From Ignavibacteriota bacterium (GTDB lineage: Bacteria; Bacteroidota; Ignavibacteria; UBA10030): 64,000 bases of DNA. Position 1 is the first letter of the stretch. The number at the start of each line of letters is the position of its first letter. The notes under the pieces were generated by a model that was not told the DNA's origin, did no database searches, and saw only the letters and a program-made list of their open reading frames with translations. The DNA is taken from positions 800,001 to 864,000 of the forward strand of contig OY969585.1 in assembly GCA_963701295.1 (NCBI GenBank). Reading direction: 5' to 3'. Below are positions 54,710-61,102 of the stretch, piece by piece. Made by a program: the position numbers and the translations under genes.

Positions 54710-55375
54710 TTATGTAAGCAGCCCAATAAGCATATCTAACGGCATGCGCAGTGTGAGTACTACAGAAAAAACAGCATGTTGAAATGGCGCTATTCGCATC
54801 AGCATAATAACAATGAGGATTCCGAAAAATCCGATTTGCCGAAACTGCTCGCCTTTTTTTTCTGGAAGCAACGATGATAATACATGTGAACCATCTAACG
54901 GTGGAACAGGAATCAGATTAAAGACAGCAAGAAAAATATTTAGCGTGATACCGGCGGCAAACATGCGAATCACAAATGTTGCCATTTCACGTTGAAGATC
55001 ACTTTCGACCAATGTTATCGAACCGAAAAAATTCACCAAAAGAATGTAAAAAATCGAACAAAAGCATGCTATCAATAAGTTAGAAAACGGACCAGCGATG
55101 GAGACAAGAATATCGTCCCGGTGATAATTACGAAAATGAGCTGGATTGATTGGGACCGGTTTTGCCCATGCAATAAACACAGATCCAGCAGAGATAAACG
55201 ACAACAATGGAATGGCAATAGATCCGATTGGGTCAATATGGGGAATCGGATTAAATGTTAACCGACCGGCGTCGCGTGCAGTCGAGTCACCCAGACGCAG
55301 CGCCACCCATCCATGCGCTACTTCATGCACGACAATAGAAAAAAGCAGAATCGGTAATACATAAAGAGAATCCAA
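54710..55375 (-). CDS. Site-2 protease (M50) family protein
   Basis: HEVAHG, NPIPHIDPIG, AGPFSN, FNLIPVPPLDGS; TTG start with AAAGGA SD. Confidence 0.92.
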   Translation of the reverse strand: MDSLYVLPILLFSIVVHEVAHGWVALRLGDSTARDAGRLTFNPIPHIDPIGSIAIPLLSFISAGSVFIAWAKPVPINPAHFRNYHRDDILVSIAGPFSNLLIACFCSIFYILLVNFFGSITLVESDLQREMATFVIRMFAAGITLNIFLAVFNLIPVPPLDGSHVLSSLLPEKKGEQFRQIGFFGILIVIMLMRIAPFQHAVFSVVLTLRMPLDMLIGLLT

Positions 55376-55398
55376 GAGAATGTCCTTTCAAAAACAAT

Positions 55399-55422
55399 CC
55401 GTCCCGCTGCGATGCGGGACGG
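55399..55422. repeat. GC-rich REP-like hairpin
   Basis: CCGTCCCGC-TGCGAT-GCGGGACGG. Confidence 0.6.
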
Positions 55423-55588
55423 GCAAAAAATACTATCTGCATTCAATACCTATATATAGGTACCAAAAAATGTGGTGGAATTCAAGAAGTTCCCGTACAT
55501 GAATCATTGCATCTGCGGCACTGTTTTTCTATATTCATTCCATATTTCATGTAACATCCTTATATACTTTGACAGTCCGAGGTTTCCA

Positions 55589-57502
55589 ATGAACATTAGA
55601 TTCTTGTCCTTACTCTCTGGTATCCTTTGCGTTGCTACGATTCTCAATGCTCAGGCACCTTCTATTCAGTTGAAGATTAAAGAAAAATCCGGTTTCTTAG
55701 GTATGGGCGGTCCTCGCACACTGAAGATCGAACTCTCAAATCAAAATCGCCAACAACGATTAACAAGCGACAGCGTTAACAGCGGGGAGTACTTCTTCTT
55801 TCTTGTGACACCCTTAGAAGATTGGAGGCTCGATGAGGATTTTGCAAAGGAAGAGATTTCTAAAATCAGTATTAGTCAAGACGGAAATAAAATCTCCATT
55901 GCATGGAAGAGTGATCTGATCAAGGGGGGAAACAATGCCTTATTGCTTGGATTCTCAAAGACATTCAAGTTTAACCTTCCCTTTTCGTTCCAATATCCGG
56001 TCGATGACGTAATGAATCAGGCAGAGTATATTGTACCACAGGAATTATGGCCAGGGTTTACGACAATCACCGATCTTACGAAGCAAGCCGAAACCGCGAT
56101 AGCTGCGAAACAATTCAAATCAGCTATTGGATTCTACGGGCAGATTCTGGGGAACAAAAACTTGCAGATTTTCCCTCAATATGAAGAATCAAAGAAAAAG
56201 CGTACTCAATGTTTCGATAGTTTTCATAACGAAACTTCTTTATCGTTCCAAGCAGCAGCTACAAATGCACAAATAGATTTGAATTCACGTATAGCTCTTA
56301 TGGATGGGTTTAAGCCGAACTTGAAGATGATACTCGATTCATTACCGCAGGCCGAATGGAACATCGGTTCGCTTGATTCGGCTGTCGCCCCTATTTTAAA
56401 TCAATGCCGAAATTCACTCGCCCATCTCAACAGTTTTCGTGATTCGCTCCAGCATATTTTGGATGATCAGAACGTACGATGGATTATCGAAGGCTCCGCA
56501 ACAGGTAAAAACGGTTACCTCTATGTATACATGATCGAAACATTAGCATCGGCTTTTTCATCTCTCAATTTTGCCGACACACTTGCACTAGAATTGAAAG
56601 TGAAGATATCAGATGAATATCAGACACGGTTGACAAAATATGACATCATGTCGTCTTATGAGACATTCATCCGCATTTGTAACGAACGGTATCAAACACA
56701 TCTTCCTGTTTTCCCGATCGATTTCCTTCCCAACCTCAAGAAAGACAGCATTTCTTTTCCACTGCCCTATTATTCAATACTCAAAGCAGTAAATGATTAT
56801 TACTATGGCGACTTTGCAAGCGCAAAGAAAGAGATCATCCATATCTTCCGCACGAATTACGAACCAGATATCAATAGCCGATTTGACATAATGCGTGTGG
56901 TCATTGCGAACCGCGAACAACGTATTTCACCGGACGTGATGAAGATGTTCGAAGAAGCAGAACAATTGGAAAAAGTAAAAGATCTTCAGAATGCACAAGA
57001 CAAATACCGCCAAATTACATTGATTGCACCAAATTTTGCGTATGGTTTTTTTATGCTCGGAAAATTTTACAGTCGCACAGGTGATCCCATCCGGGCAAAT
57101 TATTCATATCAACGGGCATATCAAATTGACTCGCTTTATTTAAGCGCCTATCGCGAGAGCTATAGTATCTTTCTAAAGCAAAGCAACTTCAAAGAAATTA
57201 TTAACATGTATTCCATAGCACTTTCTAAAGGGAACAATTATTGGGAAATTAATTATACTCTGGGCGTAGCTTTTACCGGTGAGGCAGATCCAGCACGCGC
57301 CATCCAAAGTTTTGAACGCGCACTCGTACTCAATCCAAAAAGCTACAAAACAAATATCCAGATTGGACTCGCGCATCAGAATGTTAAGAACTACCAAAAA
57401 GCACGCGAGTATTTTAACAATGCCATCGGCTTAGATCCTACGCGGCAGGAAGCAGTCGATTATCTGACAAAGTTGAACGAACTCCAGCGAACCGGCAGAT
57501 GA
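55589..57502 (+). CDS. Exported protein with C-terminal TPR repeats
   Basis: Signal peptide from MNIRF; TPRs such as FERALVLNP and YFNNAIGLDP. Confidence 0.8.
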   Translation: MNIRFLSLLSGILCVATILNAQAPSIQLKIKEKSGFLGMGGPRTLKIELSNQNRQQRLTSDSVNSGEYFFFLVTPLEDWRLDEDFAKEEISKISISQDGNKISIAWKSDLIKGGNNALLLGFSKTFKFNLPFSFQYPVDDVMNQAEYIVPQELWPGFTTITDLTKQAETAIAAKQFKSAIGFYGQILGNKNLQIFPQYEESKKKRTQCFDSFHNETSLSFQAAATNAQIDLNSRIALMDGFKPNLKMILDSLPQAEWNIGSLDSAVAPILNQCRNSLAHLNSFRDSLQHILDDQNVRWIIEGSATGKNGYLYVYMIETLASAFSSLNFADTLALELKVKISDEYQTRLTKYDIMSSYETFIRICNERYQTHLPVFPIDFLPNLKKDSISFPLPYYSILKAVNDYYYGDFASAKKEIIHIFRTNYEPDINSRFDIMRVVIANREQRISPDVMKMFEEAEQLEKVKDLQNAQDKYRQITLIAPNFAYGFFMLGKFYSRTGDPIRANYSYQRAYQIDSLYLSAYRESYSIFLKQSNFKEIINMYSIALSKGNNYWEINYTLGVAFTGEADPARAIQSFERALVLNPKSYKTNIQIGLAHQNVKNYQKAREYFNNAIGLDPTRQEAVDYLTKLNELQRTGR

Positions 57503-57553
57503 ATCTTATGTTTCAAGAAATGCTACTGAAGGAATTCCAAGGTGAACCCTTTT

Positions 57554-57582
57554 TTGCTTTTCATTCAATCGGTTCTTATATT
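57554..57582 (+). promoter_or_regulatory. Candidate sigma70 promoter for the tRNA locus/tig
   Basis: TTGCTT, 17 nt, TATATT. Confidence 0.45.
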
Positions 57583-57644
57583 GAAATGCCCAATTGCAGG
57601 CGTTTATGAGAGAACGCTCAGCTTATTGGGCATTTTTTACAAAG

Positions 57645-57853
57645 GGGCACATGGCGAAACTGGCAGATGCGTCCCGCAAAACGATTTCGGGTAGATGGCG
57701 AAACTGGCAGACGCGCTAGCCTTAGGAGCTAGTGGAGTAATCCATGGGGGTTCAACTCCCCCTCTACCCACAGAGGTTTGCGGGATGGGGAAACCCATGT
57801 GGGTTCCCAGCCGGAGGCTGATGCGCTTATAGCGCAGAGTCCGTCCGTGCCCA
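57645..57853 (+). ncRNA. tRNA-Leu-shaped shell interrupted by a nested tRNA and a T-loop insertion
   Basis: GGGCAC/GTGCCC-A acceptor stem; D-arm nearly identical to the inner tRNA; TCCCGCAAA/TTTGCGGGA stem; GGG-GAAA-CCC variable arm; GTGGGTTC...GAGTCC T-arm. Confidence 0.7.
57689..57770 (+). tRNA. tRNA-Leu (anticodon TAG)
   Basis: GGGTAGA/TCTACCC-A acceptor; CTAGC-CTTAGGA-GCTAG anticodon arm; GGA-GTAA-TCC variable arm; GGGGG-TTCAACT-CCCCC T-arm; CCA not encoded. Confidence 0.95.
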
Positions 57854-57881
57854 CAAATCGTGTATTATAAATTAAAGGAAG

Positions 57882-59153
57882 TTGAGCGTGGAAGTAATTA
57901 TTCAATCTTTGTCAGATGTCTCACGCGAAGTGGAAATCACCGCCACAACTGAAGACCTTATGCCTCATTTTGATAAAGCATATTTAGAGTATAGAAAAAA
58001 AATCGAAATTCGTGGATTCCGGAAAGGGAAAGCGCCCTTAGACATCGTCAAAAAACTTTATGGCGATTTAATTGAAAACGATTCTCTGAACGAAGTCGCT
58101 ACCGAGATGTACCGCAAAGCCGTAAAAGAAAAAGAATTGAAACCCATCGGCGAACCTGTACTCGTTGACATGGATTATAAACGCGGCGAAAGTTTTCGAT
58201 GTAAGATTCAATATGATATTCGTCCGACCATAGAGGTGAAACAATACAAGGGTATTGCAGTAGAGAAAAGTGTGCATACCATAACCGATGACGAGGTTGA
58301 AAAAGAAATCATTCGTCTGCAACGGATCAATGCTATGATGGAAGAAGTGGAGGTTGTCACCGATCCAGAGCATATTGTCACCGCGACTCTCCAGGACCTA
58401 GATGACAATGGTACTCCGGTAATCGGGAAGAAAAGTGATGATATTCGTTTTTATCTCGCCGATGATCAGCTTGAACAGCCATTTAAGGATACATTACGAG
58501 AAGCGCGAAAGGGCGGTAATTATCGCGTGCAATTTGAACATAAGCACGGTGAGCATGCACATACCGTCAACACACAAATCATCGTCACGAAGATTCAAAA
58601 AGTCACACTCTCGCCGCTGGACGATGCGTTTGTCGCTAAGGTCACAAAAGATAAGTTCGTAACTGTCGATTCATTACGGGCTGGAATTCGGGAAGATATC
58701 ATTTCTTATTGGAAGGAAAAAACCGAACGTCAGGTGATCAATTCGATAACATCTGAAATTATCCGACTTCATGAATTTCAGGTGCCGGAATCGCTTATAC
58801 GCAGTGTGCTTGAAGGACTGTTGGAAGAAGTGAAGAATGAATATCCCAATAAACGATTACCGGATGAATTTGACATCGAGAAATTTAACGAAGAGAACCG
58901 CGCATATGCCATCTATCAGGCAAAGTGGGCATTATTACGCGAAGAGTTGATCAAAGCAGAGAATATCACCGTTTCCGATGAAGACCTTGAAAAGTTGGCA
59001 GAAACAGAATCTGACAAAATTAAAATTCCGAAAGATCGTCTTATCAGCTATTACAAATCTTCCGAACAGATCAAAGATCGCCTTATCGGCGATACGCTAT
59101 TGAAAATTCTTGTGGACTCGGCAAAAATAAGGGAAGTCCCTGAAAAAGCGTAA
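57882..59153 (+). CDS. tig: Trigger factor
   Basis: GFRKGKAP ribosome-binding motif; lies upstream of clpP-clpX; TTG start with AAAGGA SD. Confidence 0.93.
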
Positions 59154-59173
59154 GAAAAAAGGAAAAAATCATT

Positions 59174-59800
59174 ATGGCATATACTGAAATCTATGATCAA
59201 CTCGTTCCCATTGTCGTAGAACAAACCGGCCGAGGTGAGCGATCATTCGACATTTTCTCGCGGCTGCTGAAAGAACGGATTGTATTCCTCGGCACACCTA
59301 TCGACGATACCGTCGCCAGTCTTACGATTGCCCAGTTATTGTTCCTCGAATCGGATGACCCCGACAAGGACATTCACCTCTACATTAACAGCCCGGGTGG
59401 AAGTGTGTCTGCAGGCCTTGCCATTTATGATACGATGCAGTATATTCGTCCAGATGTTTCCACCATCTGTATGGGTATGGCGGCAAGTATGGCAGCTGTG
59501 CTGCTGGCAGGTGGAATGAAAGGAAAGCGTACAGCACTTCCTAATGCGCGAGTGATGATTCACCAGCCATGGGGCGGCGTGCAAGGTACGGCGTCTGATA
59601 TCAGTATTCAAGCAGAAGAGATTCTCAAAACCAAGAAACGGATTAATGAGATTCTTTCCATGCATACCGGACGTTCACTTGATCAAGTTGAAAAAGACAC
59701 GGATCGAGATTATTACCTTGCTGCCGATGAAGCAAAAGAGTACGGATTGATTGATAATATTCTCGTAAAGCGAGTCGGTGAAGTAAAGAAAGAAAAATAA
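59174..59800 (+). CDS. clpP: ATP-dependent Clp protease proteolytic subunit
   Basis: [29 protein letters not shown]. Confidence 0.97.
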
Positions 59801-59842
59801 TCGTTCACAAATTACCGGTAATGAATAAAAGCCGGATAGGAT

Positions 59843-61102
59843 ATGACACAGAAACCTAGGCAAGGCGAAAAAATTGCGTGCTCCTTCTGCGGACGCACGC
59901 CGGAAGAAGTCAACAGTATCATCGCAGGACCGGATGTCTATATTTGCGACCTCTGCGTTGGAAGTTCCGTTGACATCATCAAGAACAATATGGCGGCAAT
60001 TAATGCGCGGCGGTTTGGCTTCCGTCGTTCACTAACACCTGTTGACATTAAGAAGTCACTTGATGAATTTGTCGTTGGACAAGATCATGCCAAGCGTACA
60101 CTCGCAGTTGCAGTATACAACCATTATAAGCGCATCGATGCAAGTGATCAAATGGCAAATCTCGATGAAGTAGAAATCGAGAAGAGCAACATCCTCCTCG
60201 TTGGACCAACTGGAACCGGTAAAACACTGCTTGCACAAACACTCGCGCGAATTCTTGATGTGCCTTTCGCCATTGCCGACGCAACAACATTAACAGAAGC
60301 TGGCTATGTCGGTGACGATGTTGAAACGATCCTCGTCTATCTTTTACAGAATGCCGATTATAATGTTGAGAAAGCTGAGCGAGGTATCGTTTATATTGAT
60401 GAGATTGACAAAATTGCCCGTAAAGGCGACAGTGCTTCTATTACACGTGATGTTTCCGGCGAAGGTGTACAGCAAGCACTGCTGAAAATCCTTGAGGGCA
60501 CCATCGCCGGTGTCCCACCGAAAGGCGGACGCAAACATCCGGAGCAAAGTCTCATTAACGTCAATACAAAGAACATCCTCTTCATTTGCGGCGGTGCATT
60601 CGATGGATTGGAAAAAATTATCGAGCGGCGTGTGAGTCAAAATCCTGTAGGGTTTGGAGCTGAGCTTAAAGGAAAGAAGAGCAAGTCCCGTGGAAAAATT
60701 TTGCAGCAAGTAGAGCCGGATGATTTGCTCAAGTACGGATTAATTCCAGAATTTATCGGCCGGTTACCCGTTACCGCTTCACTTGATCCTCTTGACGAAA
60801 TTGCGCTCTTGAACATCCTGACACAGCCGCGCAACGCAATCGTAAAGCAATATCAAAAACTCTTTTCACTGGAAGGTGTAGAATTGGAACTTGAGGAGAG
60901 TGCTCTCAAATCAGTTGTCGATAAAGCGATGGAACGGGGCACAGGTGCCCGTGCCCTTCGCTCTATTATTGAGGCAGTAATGCTTGATGTGATGTATCAT
61001 CTTCCCTCGCGAAGCAATGTTTCGAAGTGCATCATCACGAAAGATACTATCCTCAAAGCAAAAGATCCGATTTACCTCTACGAGGAACGAAAGTCGGCAT
61101 AA
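59843..61102 (+). CDS. clpX: Clp protease ATP-binding subunit
   Basis: CSFCG...ICDLC zinc finger, [31 protein letters not shown]. Confidence 0.97.

Follow-up and report, generated by a model that had tools for sequence, protein, structure and literature searches.

An intact tRNA-Leu(TAG) gene was found inside the two separated halves of another tRNA-Leu(TAG) gene in the window, a stretch of 64,000 nucleotides of an Ignavibacteriota genome. To judge from its sequence, the outer shell is what remains of an earlier resident tRNA-Leu(TAG) gene; a cassette of about 115 bp, composed of complementary arms and a complete tRNA-Leu(TAG) gene, has taken the place of its anticodon arm. We have little doubt that the shell is dead and that an insert interrupts it. 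It is reasonably likely that the cassette spreads between species as a non-autonomous element, served in trans by a small tRNA-linked GIY-YIG nuclease. The evidence consists of the anatomy of the locus, the shell's identity and its decay without compensation, the patchiness with which the cassette is distributed, the co-variation of its arms, and the occurrence of the same hairpin and junction beside GIY-YIG genes.

Anatomy and predicted fold of the locus

Every part of the nested arrangement proposed in the initial annotation was found where it had been placed (Table 1). Both ARAGORN and Rfam call a single tRNA here, the inner gene (57689-57770/1, tRNA-Leu(TAG), 56.5 bits), which is also the sole Leu-UAG gene among the 48 ARAGORN calls of this single-contig genome. 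Since the inner gene alone is called, standard annotation hides the nesting. No second copy of either shell half was found in the genome. The insert amounts to a tRNA plus 32 nt, and no ORF was found inside its 114 bp. A sigma-70 scan of the locus returned no promoter on the + strand. The start codon of tig is probably the GTG at 57888, which is common to most relatives, and not the TTG at 57882 (57882-57890 of the window). Titled records that share the left junction are labelled Bacteroidota or Ignavibacteriota.

Table 1. Features of the nested tRNA-Leu(TAG) locus, in window positions, and tRNA-linked GIY-YIG loci of the same genome (G000).
Feature	Coordinates	Strand	Remarks
TPR-domain gene, upstream (context)	55472..57502	+	
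Hairpin and T run 5' of the shell (context)	57616..57636	+	Same in simple and nested genomes
Remnant of the earlier resident tRNA-Leu(TAG), 5' half, through position 26, with D arm and acceptor 5' strand	57645..57671	+	2 substitutions relative to the intact G001 gene, both uncompensated
Inserted cassette replacing the 17-nt anticodon arm	57672..57785	+	114 bp here, 115 in G010; 7/16 genus genomes lack the cassette and have a normal arm between the same flanks
Cassette left arm, TCCCGCAAA	57672..57680	+	Pairs with the right arm; 11-12 pairs in G010, G009, G005, G012
5' linker of 8 nt, a predicted leader for the inner tRNA	57681..57688	+	From sequence; length varies among cassettes
Inner intact tRNA-Leu(TAG)	57689..57770 (end 57770/1)	+	CCA not encoded; 0-2 nt differences across the 9 nested genomes
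6-nt 3' linker	57771..57776	+	From sequence
Cassette right arm, TTTGCGGGA	57777..57785	+	By alignment, one T shorter than the G010 and G009 arms
Remnant of the same earlier tRNA, 3' half, from position 44 on, with variable and T arms, acceptor 3' strand and discriminator A	57786..57853	+	1 substitution and one insertion relative to G001
Double hairpin of 30 nt, inserted later and separately into the dead shell's T loop	57807..57836	+	Absent from G010, G009, G005, G012
Trigger factor gene tig, then clpP and clpX (context)	57882..59153	+	Pfam Trigger_N/C, CLP_protease, zf-C4_ClpX
tRNA-linked GIY-YIG loci L142, L143, L145	G000:C1:2356095-2356520, 3414881-3415240, 3297422-3297830		Ala, Cys, Leu(CAA)

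The junctions were crossed by contigs from unrelated runs: X17 (57600-57763), X19 (57600-57760), X20 (57629-57779, continuing into the right arm) and X3 (57625-57712). The eight sequencing runs aligned represent contigs of related strains, no run containing more than 0.15 of the query words, and gaps in their coverage carry no weight.

The region folds at a z-score of -4.66, and none of 200 shuffled sequences equalled its folding. Predicted pair probabilities were 0.98-1.0 for six pairs of the shell acceptor and 0.9-1.0 for the seven outer pairs of the arms, in agreement with the earlier claim that the halves pair with each other through acceptor and arms. In the predicted precursor, the T stem of the shell had a pair probability of 0, and the acceptor and T stems of the inner tRNA formed. 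The TCCCGCAAA/TTTGCGGGA stem does not represent an anticodon stem native to the shell. The intact gene of the relatives carries CTAGC/GCTAG at this place, and the two arms are therefore the ends of the insert. Two T-stem mismatches had been counted as imperfections of the shell; one of them (U50-U64) has to be withdrawn as a sign of decay because the intact genes of the seven simple genomes have it too. Lastly, persistent pairing of the stems had been held to speak against plain decay; the stems still pair because the shell derives from a real tRNA that died recently.

The former resident gene and its replacement

The nested state, a cassette of about 115 bp with inverted arms and a different tRNA-Leu(TAG), occurs in 9 of the 16 genomes of the genus. 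In the seven simple genomes, the shell-type tRNA-Leu(TAG) gene is intact and single, between the same flanks, upstream of tig. The natural intact gene of one of them, G001, whose rpoB is about 95% identical to that of the window's clade, was used as reference. Over 66 nt, the window shell departs from this gene by three substitutions and an insertion of 30 nt; what it lacks is exactly the 17-nt anticodon arm (positions 27-43), and the cassette fills that gap. The shells of G000, G010, G009, G005 and G012 have two to four changes each, none compensated and some at conserved positions (loss of U8 in G005 and of a D-loop G in G009 and G010). The shells of G013, G008 and G003 are far more decayed, and their arms are broken as well.

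The window shell has also received an insert in its T loop. A motif search in 279 loci returned seven matches, all of which follow the T-loop GGTTC of dead tRNA copies (two are loci of the same genome); judged by these occurrences, the T-loop insert is a separate recurrent element. In G004, a 48-kb tyrosine-integrase island occupies the anticodon loop of the inner gene; an inner-type 5' half has been restored, and the shell halves now lie 48 kb apart. By this arrangement, it is the inner gene that the island treats as functional. The island (G004:C55:69044-117148) has ends similar to those in L013 and L024, and the acceptor type of the restored 5' half matches each host. Because the inner gene is conserved while the shell decays without compensation, gains hairpin inserts and is split by the 48-kb island, a functional scaffold is unlikely.

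These data bear on the two options left by the initial annotation: either the locus is a processing or regulatory scaffold, or it is a scar left when an incoming tRNA put the resident gene out of action. The second option is supported: the shell is of the resident type of the genus, and the inner gene and the arms form an insert that has apparently moved between clades. What had been overlooked was the deletion of the anticodon arm, the membership of the arms in a GIY-YIG-associated class of hairpins, and the recurrence of the arrangement in several layers.

The distribution of the cassette was compared with an rpoB tree of the 16 genomes. Nesting needs at least four state changes, gains and losses counted alike, which are forced by the starred branches; in clustering and scatter the nested label stays within the range of shuffled labels, 85 of 500 shuffles giving a count as low. 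G001 is simple within a nested clade, so that a clean reversion or an extra gain is needed. Over a 116-nt stretch of the cassette, G005 and G012 differ from G010 by 2 and 3 nt at an rpoB identity of 81%; over the same stretch, G013 (87% rpoB) and G008, both members of G010's clade, differ from it by 9. The 3' shells of G005 and G012 have 3-4 differences to the intact gene of their own clade against 8-11 to that of G001, and no more than 3 nt beyond the right junction they already follow the local allele. The four or more changes on the tree and the near-identical cassette at 81% rpoB identity indicate horizontal movement, and the cassette has probably been transferred between species. Under a single old gain, the shell would have had to remain almost intact and to regain function on several occasions.

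Recurrent nests, hairpins and small GIY-YIG genes

The family sample comprised 86 genomes, 75 of which had an intact Leu(TAG) locus (11 were dropped); a half gene was called if it exceeded the 99th percentile of 900 shuffled flanks. In 19 of the 75 genomes, the intact Leu(TAG) gene lies between both halves; the 5' half alone is present in 9, the 3' half alone in 9 and neither in 38, with the qualification that two 5'-half calls (G017, G085) are located at scaffold gaps and that G068 is partly a tandem duplicate. Reciprocal nests (L016, L055) and nests of at least three layers (L046, L066) were observed, as were nests at other loci and at tRNA-Leu(CAA) (L108, L121). The acceptors of shell and inner gene differ in all 13 cassettes, in some by one base, two of the shell starts being obscured by inserts; nests of the same type would presumably collapse without trace. 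A second type of junction (L097, L092, L063, L058, L089, L094) consists of an insertion in the D arm with other hairpin ends, the anticodon arm being kept in the 3' part. The ends of this second type recur as short inserts in the T loops of dead shells.

The arms co-vary. At six positions beyond the core, 4.69 pairs form within cassettes versus 2.78 across cassettes, a difference reached in 0 of 20,000 permutations; the test used 13 distinct cassettes with both cores intact, among which kin are not independent. The same arms are carried by shells that differ in acceptor type, several such types being represented, and also by copies of Ala, Val, Gln and Thr tRNAs. The TCCCG/CGGGA stem is also found as the anticodon stem of working tRNA-Leu(TAG) genes upstream of tig, in 15 pattern hits (L227, L230, L232 and L233 among them), 11 of which are titled NC10/Methylomirabilota. 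On account of these 15 genes, the cassette arms could descend from a real tRNA stem; such a stem may have arisen from a hairpin that became a genuine arm, or may itself have given rise to the hairpin.

The genome of the window contains a second nest, at tRNA-Thr(CGT) (G000:C1:2036513-2036722, L279), with a shell of the other acceptor type, 13-bp arms and a similar T-loop insert. Among the 14 tRNA-Thr(CGT) loci of the genus, those of G000 and G010 show the nested state, an insertion splits the gene in G004, and G009 and G015 are half-nested; hairpin-bearing dead copies flank the gene in G003, G006, G007 and G008, and five loci are simple. The simple, empty-hairpin, half-nested and nested states of this gene have one common junction.

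Hairpins of this class also accompany small nuclease genes. The genome has six GIY-YIG matches, four of which are in short single-domain frames; all four small proteins scored above the Pfam GIY-YIG cut-off, and an NCBIfam search of the four gave nothing above cut-off. Three of the four genes are situated between an intact tRNA and a dead hairpin-bearing copy (Table 1), and their products are 35-44% alike and 28-32% alike to the fourth. In the dead tRNA-Ala(GGC) copy, a TCCCG...CGGGA hairpin has supplanted the anticodon arm and is bounded at 26/44, as is the insert in the window. GIY-YIG relatives were found in 76 and 74 of the 86 family genomes. Among the best 58 of about 500 GIY-YIG matches outside this genome, which had been found with the tRNA-linked queries, an ARAGORN tRNA lies within 250 nt in 46 cases (one false, on dead copies) and a TCCCG...CGGGA hairpin was detected in 30. 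Empty hairpins at the tRNA-Leu junction of dead copies occur in four records from other phyla (L250, L256, L263, L269).

No GIY-YIG gene was detected at the Leu(TAG)/tig loci (tblastn, four queries, L001-L163 with flanks of 1.5-3 kb), at the 55 pattern hits or at the 14 tRNA-Thr(CGT) loci, and no cassette with both a nuclease and a tRNA was found among them. The involvement of a nuclease, to which the shared junctions point, is about as likely as not.

Several observations on the hairpins and nuclease genes stand apart. The fourth small GIY-YIG gene (L144, G000:C1:2938600-2939600) is located amid many repeats of another hairpin family and not at a tRNA; it may be Ssn-like. Its repeats were considered as SRM-type hairpins (see below) and rejected, since the published pattern does not match them. 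Tandem arrays of near-identical small GIY-YIG genes were seen at G002:C2:365003-369130 (about 14 genes), G055:C18:93009-97653 (about 13) and G019:C9:1492184-1494253 (about 7). In the genome of the window, a relic resembling the right arm lies behind tRNA-Tyr (G000:C1:1974118-1974140), and a dead tRNA-Gln(TTG) copy, devoid of a nuclease gene, has a TCCCGC hairpin replacing its anticodon arm (G000:C1:2549700-2549780).

Proposed origin and spread of the cassette

The following course of events may be envisaged. A nuclease would cut close to the anticodon arm, either in the intact gene or in the incoming hairpin. Repair through the shared D arm (20 nt) and the variable and T arms would then swap in the hairpin for the anticodon arm. 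An empty hairpin would be lethal in a single-copy gene, so that at the resident site only hairpins with a working tRNA in their loop would survive. RNase P, together with trimming at the 3' end, would free the inner tRNA from its precursor. The old halves would decay, gain further hairpin inserts or be lost by recombination between the repeated arms, and the new gene would again be a target, giving rise to several layers. In its most general form, which we put forward tentatively and with somewhat more doubt than conviction, the cassette would be a minimal mobile element: a gene-less DNA hairpin with a working tRNA gene as its loop, homing into the matching essential tRNA gene by means of tRNA-specific mini GIY-YIG nucleases. 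It would make itself indispensable by destroying the resident anticodon arm and would drive repeated replacement of core tRNA genes across species, earlier invasions being recorded in layers.

Several known systems resemble parts of this scheme. Tyrosine-integrase islands that occupy tRNA anticodon loops retain the loop as a direct repeat, reconstruct one gene out of a host half and an element half, and encode their integrase. As in such islands, of which G004 offers an example, the target here is the anticodon region of the same tRNA; unlike them, the 114-bp insert has no integrase gene, its ends are inverted and there is no direct-repeat core. Archaeal split or intron-bearing tRNAs are likewise interrupted in the anticodon region. 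Group I introns occur in bacterial tRNA anticodon loops (10.1101/2020.01.27.920355), so that the site of the interruption is shared with both. No group I ribozyme core was found in the insert, and an Rfam scan of 55000-60000 gave only the tRNA above threshold. Removal of the insert could not yield a working tRNA because the anticodon arm is gone, and no joint of the shell halves skipping the insert was found in the contigs of the eight runs. In distinction from split or BHB-intron tRNAs, the halves have no anticodon, decay without compensation and do not make up a full tRNA together.

In the tRNA-dependent lysogeny of mycobacteriophages, a host tRNA is disrupted and complemented (PMC10865867). 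Here too a host tRNA is broken and a tRNA matching it in isotype supplied; unlike that system, the locus has no integrase, prophage or att core, the insert is about 115 bp with inverted ends, and the anticodon arm is deleted. SegB of phages T4 and T6 is a free-standing GIY-YIG homing endonuclease that spreads neighbouring tRNA genes between genomes; this phage enzyme recognises a T-arm motif and moves a whole region including its own gene (PMC2330249, PMC13096335). It shares with our loci the tie between a GIY-YIG nuclease and tRNA genes; the present cassette differs from what is described there in being gene-less (no ORF fits), chromosomal and nested in the gene that it replaces. The Ssn nucleases are described as single-domain GIY-YIG proteins of 80-105 aa that act on single-stranded DNA and are flanked by their own NTS/SRM hairpins; SsnA cuts single-stranded DNA beside its hairpin, and the loop is dispensable for cleavage (PMC11893778). 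A hairpin loop of tRNA size is plausible since SsnA, albeit another protein, does not need the loop. The word tRNA is absent from the main text of that paper (PMC11893778), and the published SRM pattern has no match at 57600-57900 of the window or at the four GIY-YIG loci of the genome, and one match among the 58 family loci.

Nests could alternatively have formed passively, from tandem dead copies by deletion or recombination of half-nested alleles, and have spread by ordinary homologous recombination, the shell still being a dead resident-type gene. Tandem empty-hairpin dead copies and half-nested states do exist at Thr(CGT) in G003, G006, G007, G008, G009 and G015, one half alone is present at Leu(TAG) in 18 of the 75 family genomes, and the Leu(TAG) locus has no nuclease. 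However, the match between left and right arms is specific to each cassette, which fits a single origin of both arms, and the return of the G005 and G012 shells to the local allele is shorter than expected from ordinary recombination tracts. A passive origin is unlikely.

We consider it distinctly improbable that the cassette is all that is left of a larger prophage or island which broke the tRNA, brought a complementing copy as in tRNA-dependent lysogeny, and later lost its body. The logic of disruption and complementation is established (PMC10865867), the site serves as an integration target for the G004 island, and the left linkers range from 15 to 66 nt, the right linkers being short. Against such a residue, a tRNA follows the left junction within about 100 nt and without cargo in 9 of 9 tRNA-type genome hits and in the 14 tRNA-bearing hits among 43 from metagenomes; moreover, the cassette has inverted ends and the gene has lost its anticodon loop, which the G004 island preserves as a direct repeat. 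Searching for a parent element by the left-junction pattern gave 10 genome hits (9 tRNA-type and 1 by chance in a coding region), 43 metagenome hits and no viral hit, and no cargo was found behind the arm in these hits. The 48-kb element of G004 and a 6.5-kb element of G078 were rejected as parents, being separate integrase elements with direct-repeat ends. The latter (L054, G078:C48:10989-17656) lies in tRNA-Leu(TAG) with its crossover in the T loop instead of the anticodon loop. An arm 10-mer was also tried as a dispersed IS end and discarded: only one of its 18 genome matches is at a tRNA.

The scaffold option of the initial annotation, in which the shell would be maintained as an RNA that governs release of the inner tRNA or transcription into tig-clpP-clpX, fares worse and is very improbable. 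The precursor is predicted to fold with the shell acceptor and arm stems, the arms co-vary, and contigs of RNA libraries, though possibly DNA, cover the shell and the inner gene jointly. Such a scaffold is difficult to reconcile with the absence of the shell from 7 of the 16 genus genomes, the lack of any compensated change in it and the loss of conserved positions, a shell T stem that is not predicted to form, the heavy decay of the G013, G008 and G003 shells with their broken arms, and the separation of the halves in G004. It is hardly credible that the shell is a tRNA-Leu with a native TCCCG/CGGGA anticodon stem whose anticodon loop received the new gene: working genes of this kind exist upstream of tig (the 15 hits mentioned above, mostly titled NC10), but the shell-type gene of the genus carries CTAGC/GCTAG, and the same arms are found on several shell acceptor types and on copies of four other tRNAs. 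Repeats of tRNAs are frequently misassembled, and duplicates at scaffold gaps occur in two family loci (G017 and G085), yet a misassembly of two tRNA loci, against which the initial annotation had asked for a check, has a negligible probability because 9 of the 16 genus assemblies are nested, contigs of unrelated, separate runs span the junctions, and the genome has no second copy of either shell half.

We regard the nested arrangement as a real and recurrent way of replacing an essential tRNA gene, apparently undescribed, and not as a new functional RNA. No description of this nested arrangement was found among the literature matches listed; these mostly leave aside subscription journals and supplements such as the Ssn neighbourhood tables, which may bear on novelty. 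The simple, empty-hairpin, half-nested and nested states of two tRNA genes in one genus tie nested tRNAs to GIY-YIG/hairpin units, and the mechanism is testable with proteins of 80-90 aa and short oligonucleotides. Stability and vertical inheritance are taken for granted when core tRNA genes serve as markers; the one described here has been exchanged repeatedly, and a quarter of the 75 family genomes keep both halves of an older copy and half keep at least one. The swap of acceptor type may in addition alter which integrative islands can use the gene, as the G004 island restores a matching 5' half.
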